DNA of 55,048 nt from Klebsiella pneumoniae. Lineage in GTDB: Bacteria > Pseudomonadota > Gammaproteobacteria > Eutrophobiales > Eutrophobiaceae. The notes under the pieces were generated by a model. The model saw only the letters and a list, made by a program, of their open reading frames with translations, was not told the DNA's origin and made no database searches. A program made the position numbers and the translations under genes. Below are positions 4,806-45,757 of this stretch, in pieces; position 1 is the first letter of the stretch, and every line of letters starts with the position of its first letter. The stretch spans positions 1-55,048 of the forward strand of contig CAMBTO010000004.1 in assembly GCA_945870865.1 (NCBI GenBank), read 5' to 3'.

Positions 4806-5513
4806 TCAGGGAGACTTCAGGAAGCGACCGATCTGACCGGCCATGTTGCTGCATGCATTCGACTGGACCCGGGCCAGTAATGGAATCGGCAGGATGACGG
4901 CGGGCATATAAGAAGTGCCCGTGGATTCCGTGCTGATCTTGCCCTCAAGATTCAGTTCCTCAAAATCCCAGATCGTGGCCTCATAATTGGCCTCGTCGTC
5001 CCAGGTCGCAAATCCGAAACAGCCACCACCACCTGGACCCACAGTACACGACATTAGACCGGCCTTGTCGGTGGTCTGGGTATACCCATCGATCCACACA
5101 AAATAACGGATCCGGAATTCTGCCAGCTTGCTTGCAACCTCCGGTGTCTGGACCAGTCGATCCAGATTTTGCACATCCATCGGCGCGGTGCTGGACTCAA
5201 AATAGGGGTACATGCTGTCGAGGAATTCACGTTCGGGAATGATATTGACGCCGTGGAGTCGCCCCTTTAATGATTGCCCGACGCAATCGATAAAATCAAA
5301 TTCGGTTTCGTAACTGGCGTTGTTACGACGTCCGAGCACAACTATCGACTCACCTTCGATAAGGCTGGTGGATAGATTTTCCCGGTATTCATCCACGATG
5401 GTCGAACTTTTGCAGCCGCTGAGGATCAGCAGCACCAACAGTAACGCCAGAGGGAAGTACAGGCCTAGCACAGATGCTTGTATTCTGTGCAGTTGATCTT
5501 GCCGGACAACCAT
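4806..5513 (-). CDS. Uncharacterised lipoprotein (last gene of the 12-gene operon)
   Basis: Hydrophobic stretch ending in lipobox LILSG-C; SCTVGPGGGGCFG loop; overlaps the upstream gene. Confidence 0.7.
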   Translation of the reverse strand: MVVRQDQLHRIQASVLGLYFPLALLLVLLILSGCKSSTIVDEYRENLSTSLIEGESIVVLGRRNNASYETEFDFIDCVGQSLKGRLHGVNIIPEREFLDSMYPYFESSTAPMDVQNLDRLVQTPEVASKLAEFRIRYFVWIDGYTQTTDKAGLMSCTVGPGGGGCFGFATWDDEANYEATIWDFEELNLEGKISTESTGTSYMPAVILPIPLLARVQSNACSNMAGQIGRFLKSP

Positions 5514-6112
5514 TCCCGCATGCCCGGTGCCTTGCGAAAGTCCAGTACGAACCGCGCACCGATATCACGCAGTGCCAGATTGATGGCCTCGTTCAGGCCT
5601 TCCTCTTTGCTGGTAAACATCGCGGTCGGACTCTTGCCATAACCGGTCAGTTGCCATTCGCTGATGATTTTTCCGCCGGGCTCATACAGTTTGATACCGT
5701 ATTTAATCCAGGCCTCATACATGTCCGAGTGGGTCTCCTGCGGCAGCGCAAACTGGGTGTCCATCACCTCAGGCTCCAGCACCAGATCGGCCACGGTACC
5801 CTCCTTGCTGACAGGGGCAACAGCCTGAAACATCGACGGTAATATCTGTTCGAACAAGGCCATGCGCGGTTGCCGGTAATCTATCGACCAACTTTTACGG
5901 GACTTGCTGTCTTCCTTATAGATGTATTCGCGGAAACTATCCGGGTAATTCACGGCCAGCGTCAGGGGAAAGCGGGTGGCGAGCGGTGTGGGTAGTTTGC
6001 CTTCAACCTGCAGATTGATCCCGGACGCGCAGCCACCCGCCAGTATCAGCATAAAATAGAGCAGCACTCGAGGTGTTGGTCGGCAGATTATAAACATGCT
6101 GTTCGATCTCAC
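5465..6112 (-). CDS. Uncharacterised lipoprotein
   Basis: Lipobox ILAGG-C after a hydrophobic segment; alpha/beta-looking body. Confidence 0.7.
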   Translation of the reverse strand: MRSNSMFIICRPTPRVLLYFMLILAGGCASGINLQVEGKLPTPLATRFPLTLAVNYPDSFREYIYKEDSKSRKSWSIDYRQPRMALFEQILPSMFQAVAPVSKEGTVADLVLEPEVMDTQFALPQETHSDMYEAWIKYGIKLYEPGGKIISEWQLTGYGKSPTAMFTSKEEGLNEAINLALRDIGARFVLDFRKAPGMREWLSGKINCTEYKHLC

Positions 6113-6134: not shown

Positions 6135-7133
6135 TTATCTGAATGTATTCAATCCTACAAATGCCCCGCCATTGCGTCGGGTCAGTTCGCGCATCAGGTT
6201 GGCAAAGCGTAGCCCGCCCATCTGCAAGGCGCGGGGATTGGCAAAAAGTACCGGAAATCCAATCGCATGCACACGTACCAGCGCATTTCCCTGCGCGTCC
6301 TTGGGATTAAGCCGGTCCACCGTGTCTATTACTTCCTCGATGGAGCGACCGGTAAAGTCGTCTCCGAATACGTACAGGCTGATTTTTTTATCAGCACTGT
6401 AAAATGTTGAAATTGCGGTAGTTATTCCCTCAACCGGGCTGCTGTTGCTGAACGGGTTCCAGGTACGCAGGCGGCTGACGATCGCCTTGCGTCTGGCCGG
6501 GGTGTCCGGTATCCATTTACCACGGTATTCCGAGTACATGTAACCGCCCTCGTCATCCATGATCTGCAGGCCTTTGACCTGAGGGTAGACATCCAGCGTA
6601 TTGATAATCTGCTCAGTCACCTTGTCCCAGGCGTACTGGAACATACTGCCGGAGGTATCGACGATAAAAATAATATATTCACTATCGATGGGAATGCCGC
6701 CTACTAGATCACTTTTTTGATCAACCTGACTACCGAGCAATCTTTCCATTTCATCGGAAAGGTCCTGCAGCGCGAGCTCCAGTTCACCCTTTATCACCGT
6801 GTTGACAGCGGCCCGTTCGCTGATGCTGGAAATATTCTGTTTGGTGTCGCCCAGTTCCTGGCTCAGACGGGCGACACGGATGTCCCATTCAGACAGTTGT
6901 TCCCGTTTTGCTGTCAGATCACGATTCAGGATTTGTGACTCGCCGCGCAGGGTGAATAGTTCCTCCTGCAATGCACGGATGATCCCTTCGTCCGGCACAG
7001 GAGACGGTTCCAGATTAACAGGGACACCGCTTCTCGAAATGACCAGTAGCAGAATAATCGCGCCAAACCCGCAGGTAATAACATCCAGAAAGGACAGGCT
7101 GATGATTTCAACGGAATCACGCCGTGATTTCAT
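6135..7133 (-). CDS. ExbD/TolR-like TM anchor + coiled coil + vWA domain protein (paralog 2)
   Basis: N-terminal SLSFLDVITCGFGAIILLLVI; heptad region; MIDAS-like IFIVDTSGSM and YVFGDD. Confidence 0.85.
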   Translation of the reverse strand: MKSRRDSVEIISLSFLDVITCGFGAIILLLVISRSGVPVNLEPSPVPDEGIIRALQEELFTLRGESQILNRDLTAKREQLSEWDIRVARLSQELGDTKQNISSISERAAVNTVIKGELELALQDLSDEMERLLGSQVDQKSDLVGGIPIDSEYIIFIVDTSGSMFQYAWDKVTEQIINTLDVYPQVKGLQIMDDEGGYMYSEYRGKWIPDTPARRKAIVSRLRTWNPFSNSSPVEGITTAISTFYSADKKISLYVFGDDFTGRSIEEVIDTVDRLNPKDAQGNALVRVHAIGFPVLFANPRALQMGGLRFANLMRELTRRNGGAFVGLNTFR

Positions 7134-8215
7134 GGCCAGTCCCGGGAGGGGCTCATAAATGAACCGTTGCTCAGCTGGGCGAGTTGCCAGTAGGCACCTG
7201 CGGCCATCGGATCACCTTCCATCGGTAACAGGATAATGTTTACCGGAATGTTCTTTGGAAGCTGATTGACCGCATCTTCAAACAACTCAAGCCTGTTTCG
7301 ACCGGAGATGATAGCCTCACGCGGCGCGTTTCTGCCCTGGGTAGGCAGGCCATCGGTAATAAGATAAATGTTATCCGGGGCCGGGTTCATACGGCCAATC
7401 TCGGCAAACGCATTGACCAGGCTGGTGCCCCCCTCCGGCACTATCTTGTCGAGTTCTGATATCGCCAGATTCAACTGTTTCTTGTCGCTGACCGCTAACC
7501 ATTGTCCACGGGTCCCGGAAATCACCGAATCGGTGGTCGTGTTAAACGGAAAAATCTGATACTGGCTTGAGACCGGGAAGCGGGTGCTGAGCCAGCGCAC
7601 CATTTCCAGTGCCTGTTTCCATTTCTCTGACGTCCGCCGTGACTGCTCCGACATGTTGCGACGCCGAATCACATTCACAATGGTGTCATCCATCATGCTG
7701 GCCGACTTGTCAATCAGCACCAGTATACGTTTACCACCGAGTTTCAGACCGGTTAGATACTGGCGATTGCCTTCACCCGTAAAGCTGCGGGTGTCCTGAC
7801 CAGTTTTATCTGTTTCGGCCTCCAGCTGTTGACGTTCAAGTTCGAGGTCTTTCAGTTGCTTTTTAAGCTGTTCAATCTCCGCATCCTCTGCGGCCGAGGC
7901 AAGCGTCTGCTCCTTGCCCGATGTGTCATTCAGTTCATCAGTAATCCTTCTCGCCAGTCCCTGGGCAGTGACAACCCGGTTGTCTATTTCGGCTATGGTA
8001 TTACGTAGCTCGGCAAGGTTTTCCCTGCCTTCAAGGATTTCACGTTCCAGTAACGATACCTCTGACTGTTGATCAACGGTAGGTGTTGCTGTGGCGAGAT
8101 TTGAATTAGCATTATGTTTCATGATCAGGAACAGCAAAATCACAGCACCCAGACCACAGGACATCACGTCCAGAAAAGACAGACTCATGCCACCGATGGG
8201 CGTGCGGTTGGCCAT
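7130..8215 (-). CDS. ExbD/TolR-like TM anchor + coiled coil + vWA domain protein (paralog 1)
   Basis: N-terminal SLSFLDVMSCGLGAVILLFLI; coiled coil; MIDAS VLIDKSASM, GGTSL and YLITDGLP. Confidence 0.85.
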   Translation of the reverse strand: MANRTPIGGMSLSFLDVMSCGLGAVILLFLIMKHNANSNLATATPTVDQQSEVSLLEREILEGRENLAELRNTIAEIDNRVVTAQGLARRITDELNDTSGKEQTLASAAEDAEIEQLKKQLKDLELERQQLEAETDKTGQDTRSFTGEGNRQYLTGLKLGGKRILVLIDKSASMMDDTIVNVIRRRNMSEQSRRTSEKWKQALEMVRWLSTRFPVSSQYQIFPFNTTTDSVISGTRGQWLAVSDKKQLNLAISELDKIVPEGGTSLVNAFAEIGRMNPAPDNIYLITDGLPTQGRNAPREAIISGRNRLELFEDAVNQLPKNIPVNIILLPMEGDPMAAGAYWQLAQLSNGSFMSPSRDWP

Positions 8216-9534
8216 TAATCCGGTGCGACTTCAATCAGGCGTACGACCGTGTCCGCACCGGCGAAACTGACCGTGTCGCCGGTAGTGCCGATCTTCATCG
8301 CCAATAGCCGGTTGCCATTCACAAATACGGTCAGTTCGCTTTCCGGTTTGATCTCTATGCCTGCTGCGGTCCGGCGGAACGAGCAATGTTTGTTGTCGAC
8401 CGCGGAGTCTGACACGATCACACCGCTGGCCGATACATACACGGCGGAGGGGCCAAGTGCGTAGGCACGATGATTGATCAACAGGTGTGTGGCAGCGGCG
8501 GCAACCGGTGCCATTCTGTCAATCTGATGACTTGTGCCCATGCCACTGTTAACAGTTGGTGATTTGCTGGCAGGCAGTCTGGTAATGAAGCTGAGTGACG
8601 TGCCGGCGGTACGGAGATTCATCAGGTTGGTGTTGCAACCCTGGAACACGGCCTGTTCATCCAGCGCAATGGCATTTCCCAGTTGGCCGGAAAATCCAGG
8701 CAGGCCATGCAGGCGGTCGCTGATCAACGGCACGGACGTCCCCGTCAGTTCGCGGTAGATATTTTCGTAATGTGCCTTCAGCTTTTCCAGCAGTGGTTCA
8801 CTGAATATCCGTGCCTGATAACGGTTGTTTTTGAAATTGATCTCCAGCGTCAGTTCACCGCCGGCGCGCAGCGTGCGTAATGCCCCGGGTATCAGGTTAT
8901 AGAGTTCCTGCTCGGTCTGTGCATGGTGCAGCGGATCAAACCGTGACTGATCGATGAACGCATCGGCAAAACTGGCCACACAGATATCGTGTATGTCAGC
9001 GAGCCCGGTATCATTGATAACCTTGACCGAGGTGCGCGATACATGGTCTGTCACCTCCAGCGTGGACACCAGTGCATAATGCAGGTGGATATCCACATGG
9101 TTGTATATGCCTTGTTCCGCAATCGCCGCGACACAGGCGGTGGCCGTATCGACCAGACCCACGGCGGTGAACGGACACGCCTCGACAATACCGAGTAACA
9201 GCGCCAGTTGTTCCCTGGAATAGTTGCCGGGGACGGCGAACACAACTTCCTCCGGTTTGCCGGCCTGCTCATGTATCGCCAGCAGCTGGGCGTAGGCGAG
9301 GTCGGCATGGTGTCTGGCGAGACGGGAAGGCACTAACAGTGAGTCCTGGTTTAGCTGACTCCAGTAGCGGTGATAGGTCTGGCGTGGATTACTGCGTGCC
9401 ATCGCATAGGCCTGCTTGCCGGTCGTAATCCCGGTGTCTGCAAGCACGGCATAACCCGGCTGACGCAGCACGATGTTATCGCCCGTGCCCAGACGGATTT
9501 CACTGTCATTTAATTCAATGATAGCGGTCGACAT
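8215..9534 (-). CDS. Cytoplasmic protein: degenerate actin/Hsp70-like fold plus C-terminal FHA-like domain
   Basis: IIELNDSEI, VVFAVPGNYSREQ, GLVDTATACVAA and HVDIHLH parallel Hsp70/MreB motifs; C-terminal HCSF...VFVNG...GDTVSF resembles FHA; no signal peptide. Confidence 0.6.
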   Translation of the reverse strand: MSTAIIELNDSEIRLGTGDNIVLRQPGYAVLADTGITTGKQAYAMARSNPRQTYHRYWSQLNQDSLLVPSRLARHHADLAYAQLLAIHEQAGKPEEVVFAVPGNYSREQLALLLGIVEACPFTAVGLVDTATACVAAIAEQGIYNHVDIHLHYALVSTLEVTDHVSRTSVKVINDTGLADIHDICVASFADAFIDQSRFDPLHHAQTEQELYNLIPGALRTLRAGGELTLEINFKNNRYQARIFSEPLLEKLKAHYENIYRELTGTSVPLISDRLHGLPGFSGQLGNAIALDEQAVFQGCNTNLMNLRTAGTSLSFITRLPASKSPTVNSGMGTSHQIDRMAPVAAAATHLLINHRAYALGPSAVYVSASGVIVSDSAVDNKHCSFRRTAAGIEIKPESELTVFVNGNRLLAMKIGTTGDTVSFAGADTVVRLIEVAPD

Positions 9535-9537
9535 GGT

Positions 9538-10335
9538 CTAGCGTACCTGCATATAACGGATCAGGTTGCTATCACAATAGGTACGAGTGTCGAGCACCAG
9601 TCGGTCCTGCATCAGCTGCAGTTGGTGGGTCAGGAACATGATCAGGATACTGATAAGCAGGGCAATCAATGTCGAGTTGAAGGCGACACCGAGGCTGGCG
9701 GTCACGCCGGTGATATCGCCCTGTACCGCGGCCTGGGCCTGGCTCAAGGCATCACCGATACCACGCACCGTGCCGATAAAGCCGAAGGAGGGAATGGCCC
9801 AGAGGATATAACGCACCATCGACAGCTCCGAATCCTGACGGTTGGACTCTTCTTCGCACACTTCCTTGACCGCATTGGCCACGTCCTGCACGTTGCGCGT
9901 CGAGCCGAAGCGCTGCAAGGCGGTTAGCAAGGCACGTGGCAGCAGGAAGTTTTGTTCCTGTGGCAGCGCAGATTGCAAGGTACGTACGAACTGGCGGACA
10001 TCTTCCGGCAGGATACTGGTCCCCTCCGGTATATCAAGCAGCGATCTGTTCAGCAAGCGGCGTTCGTGTAGCGCGAGGCGGATCTTCAGGCCGATGATGG
10101 CAATGACCCACAGACCCATAATGACGCAGATTTCCTGCTCCGGGTCTTTCAGGATGATGTAGGCAGACTTGGGCATCTCCGCATCTTCACCGGCCGCCAT
10201 TTTTTCCTGTTGTTGTTGAAACAGGGCGTCCGCATTCGGTCTGATAACGGTGACATAAATGGCGTGGACAATGATGATGGAAAATATCAGTGCAAACAGC
10301 TGATAGATAAACTCGGAAACCTGCGTATGTTTCAT
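9538..10335 (-). CDS. MotA/TolQ/ExbB proton-channel family protein
   Basis: WAIPSFGFIGTVRGI and LGVAFNSTLIALLISI TM pair with the conserved Thr residues; two extra N-terminal hydrophobic segments. Confidence 0.9.
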   Translation of the reverse strand: MKHTQVSEFIYQLFALIFSIIIVHAIYVTVIRPNADALFQQQQEKMAAGEDAEMPKSAYIILKDPEQEICVIMGLWVIAIIGLKIRLALHERRLLNRSLLDIPEGTSILPEDVRQFVRTLQSALPQEQNFLLPRALLTALQRFGSTRNVQDVANAVKEVCEEESNRQDSELSMVRYILWAIPSFGFIGTVRGIGDALSQAQAAVQGDITGVTASLGVAFNSTLIALLISILIMFLTHQLQLMQDRLVLDTRTYCDSNLIRYMQVR

Positions 10336-10359
10336 GTTGATTCCTTCATGGAGTATTCC

Positions 10360-10596
10360 CTAGATGTCTACCGGAAACGGGACCGACAGGTCTTCGGAGA
10401 TGGTTTCGCTCGGCACAAACTGCTCGGCGGGCGGTGTGGATTTTCCCGCTGCCGGTTTTTCTGTTGCGGCGGGTTGCTGCTGCGCTGATGGTTCAGGATT
10501 GGCGGAGGTGGTAGGCGGCACCTGCTGGGCGATCACACCCGGTGGCGTCAGCATCAGTAATAACAGAATAAGACCTGATTTAATAAGTATACTCAT
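10360..10596 (-). CDS. Small secreted protein with P/Q/A-rich linker and C-terminal FVPSETISEDLSVPFPVDI motif
   Basis: Signal peptide (VIA-QQ); ATGA overlap with the upstream gene; fills an operon slot. Confidence 0.7.
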   Translation of the reverse strand: MSILIKSGLILLLLMLTPPGVIAQQVPPTTSANPEPSAQQQPAATEKPAAGKSTPPAEQFVPSETISEDLSVPFPVDI

Positions 10597-12686
10597 TCGA
10601 GATAACGTGCAATCCTGAAACCGACATCGTTACGTTTGTCCTTGCCATAATCACGAAACGACAGACGCAGTTCAGTGACCGAACCATGACTCCAGCTGGC
10701 ACCGCGGATCACATGGTGTTCGCCACTGTCCGCACCCAGCGAGTCCAGCGAGGTTGATCCTTCTTCTGCCATATTGATATCATAAAAGTCGTGCGTCCAT
10801 TCAGCCACATTTCCACCGATATCGTACAGCCCTTTCTGGTTCGGTGTAAAACTGGCTACCGGGGCGGTGACGATCGACCCGTCGGTATATTCCGCCTGGA
10901 TAATCGCGAGGATCGGGGCGGCAGACACATCGGCGTAGTTGCCCGATTTCGGTGCGGGTGGAAGCGCATCACCCCACGCAAACTTCAGGTTGATCGTATT
11001 GCCCTGATCGCGCGCTGCCCATTCCCACTCAGCCTCGGTAGGCAGACGATAACCGTTGGCGGCCGGGTTGAAACCGGTCACCTTGTTATCTTTCACCAGA
11101 TAGAACGGTGTTAACGTGGCCTTTTCGCTGAGCCAGTTGCAATACAGTGCCACCTGTTCCCATGTGATATTGACGACCGGTTGTTTGTCGCCGTTCAGAT
11201 CATGGCCCTGGACCTCGCTAGAGGTGTGCTGGCTGTCAAACTGACGAAACTCGGCATTGGTCACCTCGGTCAGTGACAGGTAAAACGGCCGTGTGAACTG
11301 CACATTGCGGATCGTTTCATTGGCGCGTCGTCCCGGTTCACGTCGCGAGGCGCCCATCGTAATGGCAACCGCCTCGAACAGTTTCAGCTTTTGTCCGCCT
11401 GGCGAGCTAATCTCGGTCCGGACGGCGTCCCGTTTAGCCTGTTCAATCGACTTCAAGCGTGCCGAGACTTGCTGCGCAATACCGGGCCGCGGTGTGATCG
11501 TCGTTTTGTAATCGAGATAACCGGCCTTGCGGATCTCGACCGTATGTGGCGTGGTTGACAGTTCCACGGTCTGATCGGCCAGCCCCTGTGGCTTGCCGTC
11601 GATATAGACCTCGGCATCGGCCGGATCGGCCAGGATACGTACCTCTGCGATTTCCTGTTGCAATTCGATGTTGAGTGTTCGGCTGTCACCGGACTTCGCA
11701 TTGATCTTCTGTACTGATTGTGCATAACCCTGACTGAACAGACGGATGGTTGCTGCCTTGCCGGGCGTCAACGCGATCTCCAGTGGTGAGATGCCCTTGT
11801 ATTCGCCGTCCACTGTCACACTGGCGCCTGCCGGCCGGGTATTGATCTGGACGACCGCATCGGCCTGTTCCAGCTGGATGGCGGTCAGTTGCTGAGCCTC
11901 TCCGGCGGTAACACGCACGGCCTTGCGCCAGTCCTTGTAACCGGCCAGCTTGATACGCAGGTTGTGTTCACCCTGCAGGATTTCTGCGGTCAGTGGGGTT
12001 TGTCCGGCGAGTTGATCATCCACATACACATCGGCACCGACGGGCAGTGTCTCCAGCCGGACATCGCCCCAGGCGGCCTTCAATTCAGCGGTCAGGGATT
12101 GTTGCTGGTCCTTGCCTTCGATCGTCACCGCCGTCTCGTAGGGCAGATAGCGATCGGCCAGCACCTCAATAGTGTAGGTTCCGGGTTCGAGCGGTGTGAG
12201 CGTGGTCGGTGTCTGTCCGCGGACAGTATTATCAATCCGGATTTCGGCGGCGATCACCGGGACGGTATCTATTTGCAGATGACCGGGTAAGGGGCGCAGC
12301 GTGTACGCATATTGCTGGTTTTGTTTCTCATTGACAGTCAGTATCTGGTGTAGAGGATGATAGCCCGGGGCAGTTGCCTGCAACTGGTAATCGCCCTCGC
12401 GCAACAGGAAACGGTCGGCCAGTTTTAACTGCCAGCCACCGCTGATTTCGATCTGTGCGTCAGCCGGGTCAGTGCTGAGATACACCGCCTTGCCGGTGAC
12501 GATATACCCGGCCAGTAGTGCACAGACCAGTAGCGCCGCCGAGATGAGCAGTGTACGCGGACGTGCGCGGAACAGTTTACGGCCGCGCTGTAGCTGGAAT
12601 GGTTCAAACCTGACCGGTTCTATCGTCGGGCCCGGGGTAAAACCGGCTGGCGTAAGCGGGAACTCACCTTCAGTTTGATCTTTCAT
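10593..12686 (-). CDS. Membrane-anchored PEGA-repeat protein with C-terminal FGE-sulfatase (SUMF1-like) domain
   Basis: One TM; repeated T.P.GA.V.VDG...G.TP units; FGE motifs TEVTNAEF, PVVNITW, YRLPTEAEWEWAAR, GLYDIGGNVAEW and VGFRIAR. Confidence 0.88.
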   Translation of the reverse strand: MKDQTEGEFPLTPAGFTPGPTIEPVRFEPFQLQRGRKLFRARPRTLLISAALLVCALLAGYIVTGKAVYLSTDPADAQIEISGGWQLKLADRFLLREGDYQLQATAPGYHPLHQILTVNEKQNQQYAYTLRPLPGHLQIDTVPVIAAEIRIDNTVRGQTPTTLTPLEPGTYTIEVLADRYLPYETAVTIEGKDQQQSLTAELKAAWGDVRLETLPVGADVYVDDQLAGQTPLTAEILQGEHNLRIKLAGYKDWRKAVRVTAGEAQQLTAIQLEQADAVVQINTRPAGASVTVDGEYKGISPLEIALTPGKAATIRLFSQGYAQSVQKINAKSGDSRTLNIELQQEIAEVRILADPADAEVYIDGKPQGLADQTVELSTTPHTVEIRKAGYLDYKTTITPRPGIAQQVSARLKSIEQAKRDAVRTEISSPGGQKLKLFEAVAITMGASRREPGRRANETIRNVQFTRPFYLSLTEVTNAEFRQFDSQHTSSEVQGHDLNGDKQPVVNITWEQVALYCNWLSEKATLTPFYLVKDNKVTGFNPAANGYRLPTEAEWEWAARDQGNTINLKFAWGDALPPAPKSGNYADVSAAPILAIIQAEYTDGSIVTAPVASFTPNQKGLYDIGGNVAEWTHDFYDINMAEEGSTSLDSLGADSGEHHVIRGASWSHGSVTELRLSFRDYGKDKRNDVGFRIARYLE

Positions 12687-12701: not shown

Positions 12702-14261
12702 CTACCTAGCAGCGATCTTTTCGACAGCAGAGATAACAACAACCTGTGCAGGCACCTCGGCAGTGACGGTAAACTCAACCCGCACATCACGGTATCCCGG
12801 ACGCGTACCCACAGCGGTATAGTTGCCCGGTACCAGCGCCATACTTTTTTCGCTGAACTTGCCAAGTGCACCGACCCTGACCAACGAGACCTCGGTCAGT
12901 GTGTCCGAGCGAAACAGGATATCGAGTGGAACCGTCGCAATGGCGAGCAGTTTTTCCACCTTTTGCAGCTGGACTGCCAGTCGTGGCTCTGCCGGGTTGA
13001 TTTGACGTGCCTGCTCAAATATCGAACTTGCTTCTGCATGCACCGCGGTATCAGCCAGGCGTTCCGGTTTGGCAATGATCTGTTCGAGCCTGGCATCCAG
13101 CTGGACACGGCTGCTTGCATACTGTTTACCTTCCTGCGCCTGGGCGAGATTCGTATCCAGTGCAAGTGCCTTGTCATAAGCGGCCACTGCCTCACCCCAT
13201 TTCTCTTGCGACTCCAGTGTCGTGGCAGTTTGCAGCAAGGTGGAGATTTCGTCATTGAGCAGGCGTGTATCAATTTGTGCAATCGCCGAGCCTGCCTCTG
13301 CGGCACCGGGTTTCATGCGTCTGGCTTGTTCAAATGTGGCTTTTGCCCGGGTCAGATCATTGTTCTGCAGATGTGCATAACCGGCAGACATCTGCCGGGT
13401 AAATTCCGCCTCACCCAGTCGGGCGTTGACAGCGGCCAGTTGTTGCTTCGCGGTCACCGATTGTTTGTCCAGCGCAAGTGCCTGTTCATAGACGGCCTTT
13501 GCCTGTTTGAGGTCGCCATTCAGTTGCAGATCATTGCCTTCGGTGATCAGCTTCAGCACCTGATCCAGCGATTGCGCACGCATCAGGCCTGCTTTGGCGG
13601 AGCTATCATCTGCTTTCATCACCAGCGCACGTTCAAATGCCTGGCGGGCGGCGATGGCATCTCCGTTATCAATGGCCGTGTTGCCCGCATCGACCGTTGC
13701 TGTAAAGAGAGTATCCATATTATCGAGCAGAGCCGACATGGCTTCCGCTGCATTGTTATAGAGTGTTGCCGAGGTGTTGAAATCCTGCGCCTGATAAGCG
13801 GAATCCCCGTCGGTCGCCAGTTTTAGTATGTTTGCATATTCGTCAGCGGCCCAGGCCTGTACATTTTTTTGTTCAAGCTGGTCCTGCAGTTCCAGCATAT
13901 GCGCCAACAACTCCTGGCTTTTGCTGCGTTGCCTCGCGAGCTGTGCGGTTTGCCAGGGCGCGGCCTCTTTCGGTGCCGTGCTGGCGGCTGTGGCCGTAGT
14001 GTTATTGTCAACACCGGCAGGCATGTCGGTCGCCGCTGTCAGTACCGGTGGCGTAACATACTGTGGCAGCACAATGATCACGCCAGCGGCAATAACGACC
14101 AGCGTGAACAGGGCCAGCCAGATCCATTGCATGGCGGAGGGGGCGGCACGGCCGGCCGGTTTGCCAGGTTCATTGGCCAGCGTGCGGGTCAGTACGATCT
14201 CGGCCGGTCTGATGGCGTTATCGCCGGCGCTGGTGCGTCCATTTTCAGTATTGTCAGTCAT
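12702..14261 (-). CDS. Membrane-anchored TPR-repeat protein with a C-terminal beta (PEGA-like) domain
   Basis: TM WIWLALFTLVVIAAGVIIVLP; repeated A..(F/Y)E.AL.(L/M) TPR helices; end LVPGNYTAVGTRPGYRDV. Confidence 0.75.
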   Translation of the reverse strand: MTDNTENGRTSAGDNAIRPAEIVLTRTLANEPGKPAGRAAPSAMQWIWLALFTLVVIAAGVIIVLPQYVTPPVLTAATDMPAGVDNNTTATAASTAPKEAAPWQTAQLARQRSKSQELLAHMLELQDQLEQKNVQAWAADEYANILKLATDGDSAYQAQDFNTSATLYNNAAEAMSALLDNMDTLFTATVDAGNTAIDNGDAIAARQAFERALVMKADDSSAKAGLMRAQSLDQVLKLITEGNDLQLNGDLKQAKAVYEQALALDKQSVTAKQQLAAVNARLGEAEFTRQMSAGYAHLQNNDLTRAKATFEQARRMKPGAAEAGSAIAQIDTRLLNDEISTLLQTATTLESQEKWGEAVAAYDKALALDTNLAQAQEGKQYASSRVQLDARLEQIIAKPERLADTAVHAEASSIFEQARQINPAEPRLAVQLQKVEKLLAIATVPLDILFRSDTLTEVSLVRVGALGKFSEKSMALVPGNYTAVGTRPGYRDVRVEFTVTAEVPAQVVVISAVEKIAAR

Positions 14262-14351: not shown

Positions 14352-15563
14352 TCAGTCCGGATCTGCCGGTACCGTCCCGGGCGGTGTGACCTGCCCCGTC
14401 TCTGTCATATATATCTGTTTGAGAATGGCACGCCACTGATCATACTGCTGATTTACCGTACCGGACAGTGTCACCGTATTATTGTCGAGTTCTATCGTGC
14501 GTGGTTCCAGTTCTGCATTTAGCGAAGTGCCAAGCTCTTCCAGTGCCTGCACATGAATCTTTGCCTCTTCGCGTCGGTCGAGACCTTCCTTTACCAGATA
14601 GGCCCCTGCGCCTATACCAACGATACCGGCGGTATTAATCACTCTGCTGTTACTACCCTGGGCCAGGATGCCGCCGATGACCGCTACCGCGCCGCCAAGT
14701 AATTTTCCCGCTGCATCATTGCGTATTTGTCTGAGGGCAACAGTTTCTTCATAACTCATCCGGCGCCATTCACGGTAGGGTTGTTCCATGCTGGTTTCAA
14801 ACGAGGTGTAATAGTCCTGTAGTGTGTCCACGAACATATTGTCACGCTGGCGTATCTTGCGGATGCGTTCCAGTGTCGGGTCATTTTCGGCGGGCAGTCT
14901 TTTAACGGAGTAGATACCCCGGTTATTGGCCTCAATATGATCGTTAAACGCCTCCGGTGAAAACTGTCTGGCAAACTTCAGCTCGGTAATCGTATTGATA
15001 TTGGCGACATCGGCCGGTTTCAGCTTTTGCATGTAGGCAAGCAGGTCGTTGGCAATGTCGTTATATATTCCCTGGAACGGTTCTTCGCCCCGGCTGCGGA
15101 TACTGTTGTCGTAGGCATACTTGCTCGCCGTACTGTCATAGTCTTTTGCATACCAGGTCTTGCCGGTGGAATCCTGCACCCGGATCCGCAATCCCAGCTT
15201 TTCTCCATCTGACTTGAGGATCTGCCCATCGATCCAGATATCCATTTCACTCTGCCGCCCGGGTACCAGCCTGACCACACCCCAGTTACCGCTGTCTTGC
15301 AGCGTTTTGCCGATCTTCATCGGGAAGAACCGGGATTCGGCATTGCGCACCTGCAGATAGATACCTTCCTTCTCGGCCGTAGCAGGATCCGCTCCCGGAT
15401 TGAACAGATCGATACCCACATCGAGCAGGTCCTGCTCTGCAACGGGTGCGGTATTACGCACGATGGCGTTGTGTTGTGTCGACTTGACCGTGGTCGAGCT
15501 GCATCCTGTGAGCAGTGAGCTGATCATTAACAACAGGACAGCGAGTTTGTTACCGGTGTTCAT
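14352..15563 (-). CDS. Uncharacterised lipoprotein with glycine-zipper-like hairpin
   Basis: Lipobox LLTG-C; LLGGAVAVIGGILAQG...AGIVGIGAGAYLV followed by a helical segment. Confidence 0.75.
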   Translation of the reverse strand: MNTGNKLAVLLLMISSLLTGCSSTTVKSTQHNAIVRNTAPVAEQDLLDVGIDLFNPGADPATAEKEGIYLQVRNAESRFFPMKIGKTLQDSGNWGVVRLVPGRQSEMDIWIDGQILKSDGEKLGLRIRVQDSTGKTWYAKDYDSTASKYAYDNSIRSRGEEPFQGIYNDIANDLLAYMQKLKPADVANINTITELKFARQFSPEAFNDHIEANNRGIYSVKRLPAENDPTLERIRKIRQRDNMFVDTLQDYYTSFETSMEQPYREWRRMSYEETVALRQIRNDAAGKLLGGAVAVIGGILAQGSNSRVINTAGIVGIGAGAYLVKEGLDRREEAKIHVQALEELGTSLNAELEPRTIELDNNTVTLSGTVNQQYDQWRAILKQIYMTETGQVTPPGTVPADPD

Positions 15564-16768
15564 TTTTTTACCTGTACTCCTTGTTTGTACTTGCGGTATT
15601 CATCCCAGAGTTTTTCCCGGAGTGCCGGGTCTTTTTCCTGTATTGCTGCCTCGCGTAACTGGCGGGCGACAATATCATCATCCGTGCCATCAGAGATATC
15701 GGCCGGAATGTTTGGATTCCCCGCCCCCTGGTTCTTGTATTCACCCGGGCGATTATCAGACTGCGCATTGGGTAGTTGTCCTGCGGTCTGGTTATTGTTC
15801 GGGTCGCCTGCACCGTTACCGGCCGTCAGTAACGGCGGGGCCGAGCTGCCGCTGTCTCCACTGCTGCCATCACCACCGCCATTGCCGACTACAGTTTGGC
15901 CGGCACCTGTCTCATTTGTTCTGGCGATGGCCTCCTGGCGACGGCTGAGGATCACGCCATCAAACACGCCCATGCTGTTGTTCAGGTCCCGATCCAGCGT
16001 CTCCACCCGTTCCTGTCCGGTGACAACGGCCGGGCTACCATCGATGACAACGACCCGGCGTCCAGCTCCACCATTCGTTGTACCGCCACCTGCGCTTGTT
16101 GCTGTGCCGCCCGCGCTTGTGCCCTGACCCGTAGCACTACCTGTCCTGGCAGTGTTGGTGCCCGCCGGAGTACCCGTACCTTGCTGCCCGGAACTATTGT
16201 CACTGTTGCCTGTTCCGGTAGTACCACCGCTGCCCTGACGGGTACCGGATGCGGTGTTGTCCAGGACGCTTGGGGATTGTTGCGTGCCAGCATTGCCACT
16301 GGTGGAAGTGCCGGATTGTACTGATTTGTTAAATACCTCGATGGCGCCGGACAGCACCTCGTCCTCGGTCTGCACGCCACCGGTGGTCATACCTCCCTGT
16401 TGGGAGGAAGAACCTGTAGCCGCAGGGCTGCCTGTCCCCGTTGTTGTCGACCCGCTGTTTGCCTGGGTTGTCCCTGTCTTACCCTGACTCGACTGGCTGG
16501 TAGAGGGACTGCCCGCTTGGGATGATGATGGCTGCGGAAAATTGGCACCCATCGTCGGTTGCGAATTCCCGGTGCTGGAGGAAGTCGAGCTGGATGACGA
16601 TGGGCTGGAAGGTGATGAACTCGAGGACTGGCTGCCAGAGGACGAGGAACTGGACGACGAACTTGAGCTGGAGCTGCTGGATTGTTGCGATTCCGGCGTT
16701 TTACAGCCGGCGATCAGCGACAGCAGTGATGCAACAAGCAAAAGCCCTGAAATTGTTTTTATTGACAT
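15560..16768 (-). CDS. Ser/Gly/Thr-rich low-complexity lipoprotein with small helical C-terminal domain
   Basis: Lipobox LIAG-C; poly-Ser; C-terminal DDDIVARQLREAAIQEKDPALREKLWDEYRKYK; ATGA overlap with the next gene. Confidence 0.75.
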   Translation of the reverse strand: MSIKTISGLLLVASLLSLIAGCKTPESQQSSSSSSSSSSSSSSSGSQSSSSSPSSPSSSSSTSSSTGNSQPTMGANFPQPSSSQAGSPSTSQSSQGKTGTTQANSGSTTTGTGSPAATGSSSQQGGMTTGGVQTEDEVLSGAIEVFNKSVQSGTSTSGNAGTQQSPSVLDNTASGTRQGSGGTTGTGNSDNSSGQQGTGTPAGTNTARTGSATGQGTSAGGTATSAGGGTTNGGAGRRVVVIDGSPAVVTGQERVETLDRDLNNSMGVFDGVILSRRQEAIARTNETGAGQTVVGNGGGDGSSGDSGSSAPPLLTAGNGAGDPNNNQTAGQLPNAQSDNRPGEYKNQGAGNPNIPADISDGTDDDIVARQLREAAIQEKDPALREKLWDEYRKYKQGVQVKK

Positions 16769-16782
16769 AAGGTAACCCCGGA

Positions 16783-18309
16783 CTATTCCTGAAATGTATA
16801 CACCATTTTAACGTCTTCTGTGGCAATTGGTTGACCGTTTTCCAGACGCGGGCGAAAAGGAGTGATGTTTATCCTCTCCCTGGCCATGCGCCGGAGCCTG
16901 GAATCATCCTCCGGATTTGTCATTATAAACTCAAGATTGCGTACAATTCCGGATGAAGTTACATCAAATTGAACCACTACATAGGCGGTATCCTCCAGTT
17001 CTGCTGTCACCAGTTCCTGCAGGTCTATATCGGTTTTTTCTGACATGTCGATACCCTCAATCGCCCTGGATGGGTCTGTATCCAGTGAGGGGGTGGACAG
17101 ACTGGCAGCCATCATTCTGGGTACATTGAGCGCATCCAGCGAGATCGGCTTTCCAAACAGTTCATCAAGCTCAGTTGACTCTGCCCCTGCACCGGTCAGT
17201 AAGGTATAGGCCTCCTGGTAATAATGGGTAGAGGCATCACGCTTGCTGAAACGCTGGAACCAGTCACCTGTCTGTGTCAGTGCATAGGCATAGGACCGAC
17301 GTGTCAGGTCCGGATGTTTAACGTGGATATCCACTATCTTTTCCAGTGCCGCCCGACCACTGCGGTAGCTGTTCTGGATCAGACTGAGCGAGTCCTTTTC
17401 CACATCAAGCACACGCGCCAGGTAATCACCTCCGTAATTCTGCTGCAGAAAGGTACTACGAAACTCATCGTTGCTGCCGTTCTGGGTGAAGTTACTGGGT
17501 AATAGCAGCATCCCACTAGCACCGATGATCATGTCTATGCCTTCGATGTAGCCGTAAGGTTCTATCAATTTGAAATTGGCATTCACGATGCCATACAGTA
17601 GTCGTATCATGTCAGGATGGTCATCGCCCTTGACCAGTTTGATAATTTCCAGCGATTCGTTATAGAGGTTCGCCGCGACAACCAGATGTCCGAGTGACTC
17701 CGGCATCAGTGTCTTATTGAACGCATCCAGATGCCATTCAGCGATGCGGTCCAGCACGGGCAACATGCGCAGGTCATTCTCCGGGAAATTGCGTTTATAG
17801 ACCCAGAGCATGTAACTGTAATTGTTATTCAACTGGTTATAATCATTCAGCGCGGTATTCGCCTCGATCACACGTTCGAGTATCGGAATCTGCTCGAGAC
17901 TGTGCAGACCATGATTGACCCGGTTGATATGCAAGGCACGCTGATAGACTTTCAGTGCCTCGGCATGTTTTTCGGCATCACTGTAGGCCAGTCCGAGTCC
18001 AATCAGTTGCTCTACCAGGTCGTTGTTATAAGCGCCACTCTCACTTTCAAGATGCTGAACTTCACTGGCGTAAAGTTTTATGGTCTGCTCGATTTGTGGA
18101 TCTATTTCTGACGCGGGTGTATCGGCCACACTGGCCGGATCTGCCATATCGTCTCCGGATTCCGTTGCGGTTTCCCCGGACGATGGGGCGGGTTCATCAG
18201 TGGGGGATGTCAGCGGTGCCAGGTCTGTCTGTTGTGCGGTCACGATGAGCGGCGCGCCGGCAACCAGCGGCAGTAGAATCAGTAGTTGAAGCGGATACAG
18301 GTTTTTCAT
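16783..18309 (-). CDS. Exported TPR protein with C-terminal TonB-C-like domain
   Basis: Signal peptide from MKNLYPLQ; TPR-like helices; C-terminal YVVVQFDVTSSGIVRN...PFRPRLENGQPIATEDV is a TonB_C pattern. Track start 18345 is the alternative. Confidence 0.75.
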   Translation of the reverse strand: MKNLYPLQLLILLPLVAGAPLIVTAQQTDLAPLTSPTDEPAPSSGETATESGDDMADPASVADTPASEIDPQIEQTIKLYASEVQHLESESGAYNNDLVEQLIGLGLAYSDAEKHAEALKVYQRALHINRVNHGLHSLEQIPILERVIEANTALNDYNQLNNNYSYMLWVYKRNFPENDLRMLPVLDRIAEWHLDAFNKTLMPESLGHLVVAANLYNESLEIIKLVKGDDHPDMIRLLYGIVNANFKLIEPYGYIEGIDMIIGASGMLLLPSNFTQNGSNDEFRSTFLQQNYGGDYLARVLDVEKDSLSLIQNSYRSGRAALEKIVDIHVKHPDLTRRSYAYALTQTGDWFQRFSKRDASTHYYQEAYTLLTGAGAESTELDELFGKPISLDALNVPRMMAASLSTPSLDTDPSRAIEGIDMSEKTDIDLQELVTAELEDTAYVVVQFDVTSSGIVRNLEFIMTNPEDDSRLRRMARERINITPFRPRLENGQPIATEDVKMVYTFQE

Positions 18310-18599
18310 ACGCTCTGGATCGTCCTTTCCGGTATATAGCACCACAAAAAAATCAGCATTCCATCTTAACTAGGATAACGCGGCATTGGTACCTTTCAGT
18401 ATACTTTTTTTCGCACAAATTGTTACAGACTTAAATAGGAATTACGACTAAAAGTTGATAATGTAGGATACAGGTTAGGCACAAATTTGGTGCAGAAAAA
18501 AGTTGATAGTTTTTATGTAGTTAACAGATTCTGTTTTATGCTGTAGAGCAGGGTCTGCTGAGCAAACCAGCAGTGGAAATCTTACGATAGGAGATCGTC

Positions 18600-43571: not shown

Positions 43572-44660
43572 TTACGTATTGCGTTTGTCCTTCTTGGCCG
43601 ACTTGATACTTCGACCAAAGCCCTGATCCTTCTTTCGTTTGTCGGCATAGGACAGGTTGTTGGACCCGGATTCTTCCTTGAGTTTACGAAAATTATCCAG
43701 AGAGTCCTTGCTGACTTCGCCAGTCTGCACGGCTGCGAGGACGGCACAGTCTGGCTCACCAGTATGGCTACAGTCCTGATAGCGGCAGCCAGACGCGAGC
43801 CCGGAGATGACGGCATAGTTACTTGTTATACCGCTTTCCGCGCCGAGGATGCTGAATTCACGCATTCCGGGATTGTCGATGACCAATGCACCGCCTTCGA
43901 GACATATCAGTTCACGACGAACGGTCGTGTGCCGCCCTTCGCCGGATCCGCTGACAGATCTCGTTTCCATCCGATCTCGGCCGATCAACTGATTGATGAG
44001 CGTGCTTTTCCCCACTCCTGACGACCCAACGAAGCAATAGGTCATACCTGGAAGCAGCCGCTGTTTGACTGCATTCAGGCCGTCACCCGTCACATTACTC
44101 AAAGGCACTATCGGTGCGGTAATTCCGATAGACCGGATTTCAGCCAATTGTGCAGCCAGGATAACTGGACTAACCAGGTCTGTCTTGGTCAGCAGAATGC
44201 AGGGCTCGGCACCACCTTCCAACACCATGATGAGATAACGTTCCAGACGCTTCAGATTGAAATCAAAGTGGCAAGATTGCACGACCAGCACATAGTCCAC
44301 ATTCGCCGCAATCATCTGGAACTCTATCTCGTTACCGGCCAACTTTCTGCACAGTGAAGTCCGGCGCTCCAGCAACGTATGTATCACTCCGAATTTATCG
44401 CCGGGCTGCTTCTCCACACAAACCCAGTCGCCCACGCATGGCAACTCCTGGTTCAGGTGATGCTGGTGTAGATAGCGCCCCGACAATTTTGCCCGAAACG
44501 TGCCGCCTTGATCCATCAGTAACATCTGATCACGATCAACCACCGCAACGCGGGCCAGAGTTTCCGTTGGTTTGCAATTGGCCCGCTGCGCAAACCAGTC
44601 ATTCCAGCCGAGTTCATTCAATGCACTGTATTGATTGACCATTTTTATTTCATCAACCAA
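43572..44660 (-). CDS. rsgA: Ribosome small subunit-dependent GTPase A
   Basis: VGDWV, AANVD, TKTD, GSSGVGKST, GRHTT, DNPG and CRYQDCSHTGEPDC; start may be ATG 44642. Confidence 0.93.
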   Translation of the reverse strand: MVDEIKMVNQYSALNELGWNDWFAQRANCKPTETLARVAVVDRDQMLLMDQGGTFRAKLSGRYLHQHHLNQELPCVGDWVCVEKQPGDKFGVIHTLLERRTSLCRKLAGNEIEFQMIAANVDYVLVVQSCHFDFNLKRLERYLIMVLEGGAEPCILLTKTDLVSPVILAAQLAEIRSIGITAPIVPLSNVTGDGLNAVKQRLLPGMTYCFVGSSGVGKSTLINQLIGRDRMETRSVSGSGEGRHTTVRRELICLEGGALVIDNPGMREFSILGAESGITSNYAVISGLASGCRYQDCSHTGEPDCAVLAAVQTGEVSKDSLDNFRKLKEESGSNNLSYADKRKKDQGFGRSIKSAKKDKRNT

Positions 44661-44776
44661 TGCATGTACCTGAAACGGGGAATGATCGGGTAATAATTCT
44701 AGTGAGTGGTTGCAAGTTGATGTTGTCTCTTCCCTGGTGGTTTCTACACAGACAGCAGCCAGATTACTTGATTACA

Positions 44777-44833
44777 GGTTTACGATAGAGTGGATGTGCG
44801 CGTTGTTGGCGCCCATCCAACGTCTGGTAATGT
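44777..44833 (-). mobile_element. attC-like site downstream of brnA (57 bp)
   Basis: Minus strand ACATTAC-5nt-GTTGGATG...CATCCAC-6nt-GTAAACC; the L boxes pair with one extrahelical base. Confidence 0.6.
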
Positions 44834-44837
44834 CTAA

Positions 44838-45104
44838 TCATTTTCTGTGTGCTTCCATATATATTCGCAACACGGCATTCATCCTGGTTTGATATCCACC
44901 ACCTTGCTTTCGGAACCACTCCAGTACATCAGCATCGAGGCGCACGGTGATACTCGATTTGCCTGTCGGCATGCGCAACACCGCTGATTTAAAGAAATCC
45001 GGATCGAGAGGTGGAATATCCGAAGTGTCTATATCGGTATCGGATTGAGCCTTGATTTTATGCCAATCGGTCTTTGATCGTTTTTTTGAAGATTTTGCGT
45101 TCAT
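44838..45104 (-). CDS. brnA: BrnA antitoxin family protein
   Basis: TDW, IDTSDIPPL and ITVRLDADVLEWFR..G.GYQTRMNAVLR. Confidence 0.9.
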   Translation of the reverse strand: MNAKSSKKRSKTDWHKIKAQSDTDIDTSDIPPLDPDFFKSAVLRMPTGKSSITVRLDADVLEWFRKQGGGYQTRMNAVLRIYMEAHRK

Positions 45105-45348
45105 GAGTAAGAGCTTTTCTTAAAGAGATGATTCGGGTATTTTTTCCATTGTAACGTTCGGTGAATGCAATGACTGCACAGTCAGTTTCGATAATTCTGA
45201 TACCAATCCAACGCGATTCTTCATATTCAGCTCGTGTATCAAGGTGAACTAACATTGGTCCTTTAAACAGAATCGGGGCATCACGAAAATCAAGTCCGTG
45301 TTTACGAAGATTCTCCTTTCTCTTCTTTTCGTCCCATTCAAAATCCAT
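45058..45348 (-). CDS. brnT: BrnT family toxin
   Basis: MDFEWDEKK..NLRKHGLDF and RIISLRKA..ER; overlaps brnA. Confidence 0.9.
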   Translation of the reverse strand: MDFEWDEKKRKENLRKHGLDFRDAPILFKGPMLVHLDTRAEYEESRWIGIRIIETDCAVIAFTERYNGKNTRIISLRKALTHERKIFKKTIKDRLA

Positions 45349-45356
45349 ATGAATTT

Positions 45357-45385
45357 ATTGTAGTTACATTATGTAACTACCACAA
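45357..45385 (-). promoter_or_regulatory. brnTA sigma70 promoter with palindromic operator
   Basis: TTGTGG-17nt-TACAAT; the spacer carries the perfect palindrome GTAGTTACAT-T-ATGTAACTAC (45360-45380). Confidence 0.75.
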
Positions 45386-45401
45386 GACTAATTGTGATTA
45401 A

Positions 45402-45488: not shown

Positions 45489-45496
45489 GCCGAACT

Positions 45497-45736: not shown

Positions 45737-45757
45737 GTGGCCTCGACATTCTTGTAC

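Follow-up and report, generated by a model that had tools for sequence, protein, structure and literature searches.

Do two adjacent genes at positions 6135 to 8215 of a 55,048-nucleotide stretch of DNA encode the inner subunits of an ion-driven membrane motor in which the usual periplasmic domain has given way to a coiled coil and a vWA head? The whole of this stretch, referred to below as the window, lies on contig C4 of a 2.17-Mb assembly in 97 contigs, and all positions are counted from its first letter. An earlier reading made from the letters and their translations (the sequence-only reading) had described the two gene products as ExbD/TolR-like stator subunits forming a heterodimeric motor shaft. 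Flagella, import via TonB, the upkeep of the envelope by Tol-Pal, gliding with type IX secretion, and the Zorya defence against phages all depend on ion-driven motors of the 5:2 type. We consider it likely that the two proteins, here called vWA1 and vWA2, are the dimeric inner ('B-type') subunits of a motor of this type and that its pentameric outer subunit is encoded nearby, at 9538-10335. The same interpretation has been published before, as a prediction by computer, in 'Origin and Evolution of Bacterial Periplasmic Force Transducers' (Mol Biol Evol 2025, msaf138, PMC12204202), and the locus is a further member of the group described there.

An invariant Asp, a predicted paired stalk and vWA heads

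The two genes and the hydrophobic helices that their products carry near the N-terminus are located as follows.

7130..8215, minus strand: vWA1 (P0002, 361 amino acids), with a basic N-tail, an Asp-bearing trans-pore helix, a coiled-coil stalk and a vWA head with a full metal ion-dependent adhesion site (MIDAS) motif
6135..7133, minus strand: vWA2 (P0001, 332 amino acids), built like its paralogue vWA1 but with a vWA head that has diverged further
8120..8188, minus strand: putative trans-pore helix of vWA1, residues 10-32 (MSLSFLDVMSCGLGAVILLFLIM), with Asp16 at 8168-8170
7035..7103, minus strand: putative trans-pore helix of vWA2, residues 11-33 (ISLSFLDVITCGFGAIILLLVIS), with Asp17 at 7083-7085

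According to the sequence-only reading, both open reading frames (ORFs) start with a basic tail and SLSFLDV(M/I)(S/T)CG(L/F)GA(V/I)ILL, and the translations match this exactly, with MANRTPIGGMSLSFLDVMSCGLGAVILLFLIM at the N-terminus of vWA1 and MKSRRDSVEIISLSFLDVITCGFGAIILLLVIS at that of vWA2. The acidic residue, Asp16 in vWA1 and Asp17 in vWA2, is the seventh residue of the respective hydrophobic helix.

Conservation was followed in two sets of loci. Relatives were sought in one genome per species by a scan restricted to two peptide patterns, and among the matches listed at least 508 species genomes encode one. The close set consists of the best 80 loci of these at least 508 matched genomes, all from other species, with vWA1 identities of 48-82%; it holds 79 vWA2 orthologues, one locus (L022) being cut by a contig end before vWA2. 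Flanks of 10 kb were fetched around the close loci, and most of the gene misses reported below fall at contig ends or beyond the flank. When the class was sampled evenly, 36 of 400 genomes (about 1 in 11), or 33 of the 348 of good quality, had a match at E ≤ 1e-20; one of these positives is flagged as unpublished and enters no other result. The 12 most divergent loci of that sample, at 28-45% identity, make up the divergent set. The vWA1-vWA2 pair is present in 79 of the 80 close loci, where the single miss is the contig end just mentioned, and in all 12 divergent ones.

The motif [SA]FLD was found within the first 40 residues of every close orthologue (80/80 for vWA1 and 79/79 for vWA2), and the helix motif with its Asp in 24/24 helices of the divergent loci. 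Conservation of the Asp, which the sequence-only reading had proposed as a check on its interpretation, is thus seen in 183/183 helices from 92 other genomes. When the first 48 residues of both paralogues were aligned jointly, using 60 sequences of 154 distinct N-termini, F14, L15, D16, C20, G23 and L27 were invariant at a mean column identity of 48%. Since the Asp is kept in all close and divergent helices, we take the Asp, together with the D-x3-C-x2-G face that one side of the helix presents, as a family signature and not a product of chance. The separate vWA2 alignment gives F15, L16, D17, C21, D159-S163, G257 and D258 as invariant. Comparison of the vWA1 and vWA2 profiles (hhalign 99.4%, E = 5e-21, 266 columns) identifies the two proteins as paralogues across helix, stalk and head.

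The N-tails carry a mean net charge of +3.35 in vWA1 and +1.73 in vWA2, and the 15 residues that follow the helix one of about -1.4. By the positive-inside rule applied to these charges, the N-tails are predicted to be cytoplasmic and the stalks and vWA heads periplasmic, as in ExbD, TolR and MotB. The charge bias thus predicts the heads to lie on the side of the membrane where the sequence-only reading had placed them, and not in the cytoplasm.

Beyond the helix, the sequence-only reading had noted a long heptad region followed by DxSxS motifs in both proteins. These elements were located, the heptads running for about 85 residues, at the following positions.

7811..8071, minus strand: predicted coiled-coil stalk of vWA1, residues 49-135, from complex model contacts with a periodicity of 3-4 residues
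6735..6992, minus strand: predicted coiled-coil stalk of vWA2, residues 48-133, in register with vWA1 residues 49-135 in the complex model
7697..7711, minus strand: MIDAS motif of vWA1, DKSAS (D169-S173), with DxSxS kept in 80/80 orthologues
6645..6659, minus strand: MIDAS motif of vWA2, DTSGS (D159-S163), with DxSxS kept in 79/79 orthologues

Co-folding of the full-length proteins gave an interaction prediction score from aligned errors (ipSAE) of 0.81, with three runs at 0.80-0.82, against 0.00 for the best of three controls; the mark set for this score is reached by 58 of 80 solved complexes and by 2 of 110 mismatched pairs. At least 71% of the contacts were shared between runs, and the predicted local distance difference test score (pLDDT) of the partner was at least 75. 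The model shows a parallel, in-register coiled coil of ~85 residues, which would measure ~13 nm at 0.15 nm per residue, with further contacts between the C-terminal segments of both heads. The modelling and its controls support a parallel coiled-coil heterodimer of vWA1 and vWA2, a heterodimer having been suggested by the sequence-only reading, and the strict co-occurrence of both genes, together with the 4-nt overlap between them, is a second argument for a heterodimer. The spacing from the Asp to the MIDAS motif has a median of 153 residues in vWA1 (149-156) and of 142 in vWA2 (138-144), leaving aside one vWA1 outlier of 88 that is probably a chance D.S.S match. This near-constant stalk length fits a rod that pairs in register and spans a set distance.

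In the vWA1 head, D169, S171, S173 and D288 are invariant, and T264 is invariant in one alignment and at least 90% conserved in another; the downstream metal-ligand region of vWA2 holds the invariant G257-D258. The window's own vWA1 scores 22.2 bits against Pfam VWA_2, under the cutoff of 27, and its vWA2 gives E = 0.12 against VWA. At E ≤ 0.01, 79/81 vWA1 orthologues match VWA_2 and 15/75 vWA2 orthologues match VWA, and from these orthologue matches, together with the profile match between the two families, both heads are assigned to the vWA fold at the level of sequence. No vWA structure came up when profiles of the complete vWA1 and vWA2 alignments were searched against PDB sequences; the vWA1 search returned only two matches, both in the coiled-coil region (E 0.002-0.005).

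The neighbouring channel and the missing ExbD/TolR partner

A motor of this type also requires a channel, and the candidate outer subunit lies a short distance upstream of the pair.

9538..10335, minus strand: TolQ/ExbB/MotA-family channel (P0004, 265 amino acids), with a PF01618 score of 51.8 bits (cutoff 22.9)
9769-9771, minus strand: T189 (GFIGTVRGI), a putative pore threonine by alignment
9670-9672, minus strand: T222 (AFNSTLIAL), a putative pore threonine by alignment

Both threonines are invariant in 75/75 aligned sequences, both motifs are present in 12/12 divergent loci, and their positions are collinear with those of GTV and A-T in the TolQ that the genome itself encodes. An AlphaFold 2 (AF2) model built on 75 orthologues reached a pLDDT of 86.3, and in a Foldseek search its best matches were the TolQ chains of E. 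coli TolQRA and TolQR (E 6.5e-4 to 3e-3, TM-score 0.5-0.66), with ExbB next and PomA/MotA after that. The channel gene was detected in 76/80 close loci, always upstream of vWA1-vWA2 and with its 4 misses at contig ends, and in 12/12 divergent loci. In the first transmembrane (TM) segment of the channel, His24 and Gln12 are also invariant.

The sequence-only reading stated that no canonical exbD is present. This holds for the locus and for contig C4, and it fails for the genome as a whole: a PF02472 search of the entire assembly found four ExbD genes, one each on C1 and C24 and two on C49, with none on C4. The assembly has six MotA_ExbB genes, and each of the ExbD genes adjoins a MotA_ExbB gene other than that of the window (C1, C24, C49). 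Since every ExbD is paired elsewhere and none lies on C4, the window channel is left without a conventional adjacent partner gene. The replacement of the usual periplasmic domain, also claimed by the sequence-only reading, is borne out, in that vWA1 and vWA2 have no ExbD domain and carry a coiled coil and a vWA head instead.

Contig C49 (L083, L084, L087-L089) holds three MotA_ExbB genes, two of them long (463-502 amino acids, with N-terminal extensions), two ExbD genes and a TonB_C-like ORF, and looks like an ordinary multi-ExbB Ton cluster. The sixth MotA_ExbB gene of the assembly, C49:847-1224, shows no ExbD as its immediate neighbour within the stretch examined.

The motor-shaft interpretation is thus supported by the Asp, by the channel threonines and TolQ fold, by the predicted periplasmic location of the heads and by the co-fold. 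Several results count against it or against parts of it. With respect to the channel, P0004 has a fourth hydrophobic segment at residues 69-83 (ICVIMGLWVIAIIGL) that TolQ does not have. It comes after an acidic 37-residue loop and before a basic stretch, and this placement suggests that the channel may have a MotA-like topology of four TM segments with the N-terminus inside, rather than the three segments of TolQ. With respect to the inner subunits, neither P0001 nor P0002 matches PF02472 at E ≤ 1. When the profile of their N-terminal 48 residues was compared with the genome's four ExbD/TolR proteins, hhalign gave a probability of 1.2% over a short segment of 7 columns, in which lSFLDVm lies over vPyIDvm, the Asp motif; a search of the same profile against 177,635 PDB sequences found no ExbD, TolR or MotB at E ≤ 10. 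After the Asp, the helix has small residues (S/T-C-G-x-G-A) where the genome's ExbD/TolR have an aliphatic run, and in view of these small residues its packing in the pore may differ from that of ExbD/TolR. The co-fold test, moreover, does not separate a heterodimer from a homodimer, in that near relatives of a genuine partner pass it as well and vWA1 and vWA2 are paralogues. Insertion of the helices into the pore is drawn from analogy and from the AlphaFold 3 (AF3) models reported in PMC12204202, and on this architecture the literature yielded that one computational prediction and nothing experimental.

The term ExbD/TolR-like, as used in the sequence-only reading, therefore stands in part. 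The N-in single TM segment, the buried Asp near its cytoplasmic end and the short motif around it are retained, and homology to the family is not demonstrable from the hhalign and PF02472 results, the segment being very short. The vWA pair would work like ExbD/TolR in the sense of a functional analogy and is not a demonstrable member of that family.

The same negative results are what gives weight to a different explanation, in which the vWA proteins are plain membrane-anchored periplasmic scaffolds, much like the anchored vWA proteins of the BatA/BatB type, that are part of one envelope complex with the channel and yet stand outside its pore. The TolQ-like pentamer would then need no partner, or would find one that is encoded at another site, such as the genome's ExbD/TolR. 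We regard this as improbable. In its favour, sequence searches give no link between the helices and ExbD, TolR or MotB, the helices are put into the pore by analogy, and spare ExbD-type genes exist, contig C49 having two ExbD beside three MotA_ExbB genes. A plain anchor, however, needs no invariant buried Asp and no D-x3-C-x2-G face, yet both are kept in all 183 helices, in a segment that is otherwise variable. The channel, for its part, retains the pair of threonines that contacts the Asp in known motors, it stands beside the vWA pair at the frequencies given above with no ExbD-type gene seen there, and each ExbD in the genome already has an ExbB/TolQ neighbour.

Proposed mechanism and relation to known motors

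In MotAB, ExbBD, TolQR and GldLM, two inner helices sit within a pentamer, and protonation of the Asp drives relative rotation; in inner subunits of the MotB/PomB type the buried Asp is the ion-binding site. In the motor that we favour for the window, the two paralogues would pair as one heterodimeric rod, with the ~13 nm coiled coil as its shaft and the heads touching, and their two helices would occupy the pentamer's pore, on the model of TolQR, ExbBD, MotAB and GldLM. The Asp residues would be protonated alternately via the conserved threonine ring (T189, T222), and the flow of ions would turn pentamer and rod relative to each other, the rod being either spun, as GldM is, or held while the pentamer turns, as MotB is. 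The vWA heads would stand in for the periplasmic domain of ExbD, TolR or MotB as the output or anchor end, and it is presumably the MIDAS metal through which they would bind an acidic residue on a partner in the periplasm or the outer membrane. Candidate partners would be the cluster's own lipoproteins and the PEGA-FGE protein described in the next section, the motor then being one module of a conserved envelope cluster. We infer the 5:1:1 stoichiometry, the use of protons rather than sodium, the rotation and the MIDAS-mediated grip on a partner.

The design would amount to an inner subunit whose periplasmic domain has been exchanged for a rigid stalk with integrin-like, metal-dependent heads. 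If the proposal is correct, it would offer a new route by which the proton-motive force reaches the outer envelope and a tractable case for the coupling of a motor to its load.

Among known systems, GldL-GldM and PorL-PorM form a 5:2 motor in which the dimeric inner subunit extends as a long periplasmic shaft towards an outer-membrane-associated complex, and the FGE-sulfatase fold occurs there in GldK/PorK. The general outline is similar to the one proposed here and both have an FGE-fold protein, whereas the present pair has a coiled-coil shaft that ends in vWA heads. The hosts here are Gammaproteobacteria, and no sequence relation to GldM or other components of the type IX secretion system turned up, no search having been dedicated to it. 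MotA-MotB and PomA-PomB share the channel superfamily and, judging by the predicted segments, possibly the four-TM topology; no OmpA-like peptidoglycan-binding domain or plug helix was recognised here, in contrast to those systems, and the gene context is non-flagellar.

The likeness to TolQ-TolR and ExbB-ExbD is found mainly in the membrane. The channel belongs to the same Pfam family, its model is closest to TolQ chains and both pore threonines are kept, and the inner subunit likewise has a short basic N-tail, a single TM segment and an Asp in its N-terminal third, in the context x-[FLI]-[LI]-D-[VF]. The difference lies in the absence of an ExbD domain, in the use of two different inner subunits instead of a homodimer, and in a periplasmic part made of coiled coil and vWA head. 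In addition, no SHLS helix of the TolA/TonB type, as defined in PMC12204202, could be recognised in the cluster, judging from its PEGA-FGE and TM-TPR proteins.

In its section 8 and the legend of Fig. 4c,d the same paper predicts a second vWA family, proteins named 'TPH-vWA' that are encoded beside tolQ-like genes, in tight co-occurrence with tolQ homologues and without tolR/exbD, mostly as heterologous pairs and mainly in Proteobacteria (PMC12204202). These have a TolR/ExbD-like trans-pore helix with a conserved Asp, and the AF3 models of the paper place the pair of Asp residues inside the threonine ring of the pentamer; for the first of its vWA-transducer families no deletion phenotype is reported, according to the paper. 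The locus described here shares the TM-tethered vWA pair, the tolQ-like linkage, the absence of tolR, exbD and motB, the Asp and the threonine ring. There is no essential difference between the two, and kinship to the Idiomarina exemplars of the paper is inferred from the shared features. The coiled-coil stalk and its conserved length, and the genes for the Hsp70-NBD/FHA, PEGA-FGE, TPR and lipoprotein products (NBD, nucleotide-binding domain), are not mentioned in that section and legend. What is added here is the 11-gene cluster with its 7-gene core, the facultative Hsp70-NBD/FHA protein and the tightly conserved stalk length. The locus adds no principle beyond the 2025 prediction, and its value is that of one more well-conserved and compact example of a widespread machine.

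The conserved envelope cluster around the proposed motor genes

The motor genes belong to a cluster of eleven ORFs that extends on both sides of them. The other members are given below in the order of transcription, each with the number of the 80 close loci in which tblastn gave a match; the corresponding numbers are 76 for the channel, 80 for vWA1 and 80 for vWA2.

18345 down to 4806, minus strand: cluster of eleven ORFs, with gaps of -49 to 90 nt except for a 257-nt gap upstream of the channel gene
16783..18345, minus strand: secreted TPR protein P0131, 520 amino acids, TPR_12 at 7.5e-10 and a weak TonB_C-like C-terminus; peripheral; 52 loci
15560..16768, minus strand: Ser/Gly/Thr-rich lipoprotein P0130, 402 amino acids, lipobox LIAGC, acidic C-terminus; 57 loci
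14352..15563, minus strand: lipoprotein P0129, 403 amino acids, lipobox LLTGC, glycine-rich hydrophobic segment near the C-terminus; core; 66 loci
12702..14261, minus strand: single-pass membrane TPR protein P0128, 519 amino acids, TPR families; core; 69 loci
10593..12686, minus strand: single-pass membrane protein P0005, 697 amino acids, N-terminal TM segment, five PEGA domains (1.7e-58) and an FGE-sulfatase fold (2.4e-41); core; 74 loci
8215..9534, minus strand: predicted cytoplasmic accessory protein P0003, 439 amino acids, Hsp70-NBD-like fold at ~1-330 and FHA-like domain at ~350-434; 74 loci
5465..6112, minus strand: lipoprotein A (P0006, 215 amino acids), lipobox LAGGC, directly downstream of vWA2; 74 loci
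4806..5513, minus strand: lipoprotein B (P0007, 235 amino acids), lipobox LLILSGC, last gene of the cluster; 71 loci

In this comparison, in which all eleven window proteins were searched against the 80 loci, gene order was identical throughout. Lipoprotein P0129, the TM-TPR protein, the PEGA-FGE protein, the channel, vWA1 and vWA2 were found in 12/12 divergent loci, and P0130 in 10/12, there through the acidic C-terminal ~50 residues only (matches at ~338-402); P0131, lipoproteins A and B and the FHA protein gave 0/12 divergent loci by tblastn. The 11-gene envelope cluster is thus conserved, and its core consists of seven genes. Apart from the product of 8215-9534, the proteins encoded around the motor genes all belong to the envelope: four are lipoproteins with a lipobox, two have one TM segment, at the N-terminus, and one is a TPR protein that is secreted.

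TPR, PEGA and the FGE fold are the only informative families to which the accessory proteins could be assigned. P0129 and lipoprotein A match no Pfam family, and an Atlas search with lipoprotein B returned only unnamed or DUF4136-named lipoprotein clusters. Residues 453-510 of P0131 match TonB_C at E = 0.0037 and 18.1 bits, under the cutoff of 24.6. The FGE domain of P0005 matches the GldK model at E = 1.3e-33 and 117 bits against a cutoff of 350, a match explained by nothing more than the common FGE fold.

Between the end of the channel gene and the start of the Hsp70-FHA gene lie 3 nt, and the stop codon of the latter overlaps the start of vWA1 by 1 nt. These overlapping and near-abutting motor genes suggest co-translation. 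The 257-nt gap at 10336-10592, between the PEGA-FGE and channel genes, is the sole sizeable intergenic space of the cluster, and for this reason the motor genes may possibly have a promoter of their own there.

P0003, encoded between the channel and the pair, has no signal peptide and no TM segment. Its AF2 model (73 orthologues) reached a pLDDT of 92.7 and has a beta-rich C-terminal domain. The N-terminal domain finds structural matches in Hsp110, BiP and DnaK at E about 2e-16, with isolated NBDs at TM-scores of 0.64-0.67 (target-normalised), and the C-terminal domain scores 20.8 bits against FHA (PF00498), for which the cutoff is 20.7. Asp10 is invariant. The Gly-Thr-rich phosphate loop that we take to be typical of Hsp70 is not present, and the Gly-Arg by which FHA domains presumably contact phosphothreonine reads Gly-Pro in P0003 and is unconserved in the alignment consensus. 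Of the 78 close loci that are informative, four (L058, L067, L070 and L072) lack the gene, the channel there directly adjoining vWA1, and so do 9 of the 12 divergent loci; the other three (L091-L093) have a 308-residue form with the NBD only, which at L091:8136-9059 matches P0003 in hhalign at 97.5% (E = 6e-12). Owing to these losses we regard the Hsp70/FHA protein as a facultative accessory outside the minimal machine, perhaps a regulatory one. Ser or Thr is common 7-8 residues before the Asp in vWA1 orthologues, where vWA2 has Glu. Phosphoregulation of the N-tail through the FHA domain was considered and set aside, as the window's vWA1 is without this Ser/Thr and the phosphothreonine-binding Arg of the FHA domain is apparently lost.

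The presence of a cytoplasmic protein of this kind within the motor gene set raises two further explanations of the pair. One is a Zorya-like or conflict sensor, which would do no mechanical work and in which an envelope event, for example phage contact, would be sensed via the vWA heads and the FGE protein and signalled by the Hsp70-NBD/FHA protein. Predicted conflict systems repeatedly contain vWA, FHA and FGE-sulfatase domains, an FHA-domain protein is encoded here among the motor genes, and the channel matches NCBIfam antiphage_ZorA_4 at E = 0.038. This last match, however, is weak and far under the 500-bit cutoff, and no PADLOC model matched the lipoproteins, the channel, or the proteins with FHA and PEGA-FGE domains. 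The cluster has no nuclease or other effector, its gene order is kept independently of position across 92 species, and many of its products are structural envelope proteins. The Hsp70-FHA protein, moreover, cannot be the essential output when its gene is missing at the frequencies given above. We judge a sensor of this kind to be highly improbable. The LmuB and JetC matches that PADLOC reported for the vWA proteins cover the coiled coil only and were discarded as noise.

The other is a static alignment scaffold of the PilN/PilO or GspL/M kind, held by the actin-fold Hsp70-like protein as PilM holds PilN, with the TolQ-like protein as a separate energiser. The pair does have the features of such a scaffold, namely a short N-tail, a single TM segment, a coiled coil, a globular periplasmic domain and pairing paralogues, and the gene for a cytoplasmic protein of actin/Hsp70 fold lies immediately upstream with the 1-nt overlap noted above. 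That gene is dispensable in many clusters, however, the missing B-type partner of the channel would be left unexplained, and no need for a buried Asp is known in anchors of the PilN/PilO type. This explanation is hardly credible on the present evidence.

Returning to the motor that we favour, its extension to the cluster as a whole is more doubtful than the motor itself. On this extended proposal, which we hold to be possible and on balance unlikely, the whole cluster would form a trans-envelope rotary machine whose vWA-tipped rod spins like GldM, with the MIDAS heads engaging the acidic C-terminus of P0130 or the PEGA/FGE protein and so moving or remodelling an outer-membrane or surface structure. 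In one large subclade the Hsp70-like/FHA protein would serve as a clutch or brake on the pentamer. A literature search on the wider cluster found nothing relevant, phrases from annotation names leading only to Treponema proteomics papers.

Stretches of the window were found in lake-water and freshwater metagenomes of several studies. Contigs from four RNA libraries of four studies lie on the operon at ≥95% identity in 26, 26, 27 and 16 of 30 bins. This cover is compatible with transcription of the cluster in nature and is weak evidence for it, as DNA may occur in such libraries; nothing can be concluded from the parts of the operon that lack cover in one run or another, such as 8874-9325, which is bare in three of the four. 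A joint between 6661 and 11133 seen in these contigs was disregarded, being carried by a single contig with 23 letters on its shorter side. In the Ser-rich region at 15970-16172, one run has a 45-nt skip at 16126-16172 and two runs have a GTT insertion behind 16076; these length variants are probably strain-level variation in repeat length.

Scans of the window for tRNA genes and Rfam families gave no matches. The locus L001 has the entire cluster at 82-96% protein identity to the window and is, with L069, among the closest loci; both come from metagenome bins titled Klebsiella pneumoniae, and these organism labels look unreliable. At window positions 44001-46000 the G+C content drops to 0.469, against 0.50-0.57 in the remaining window.

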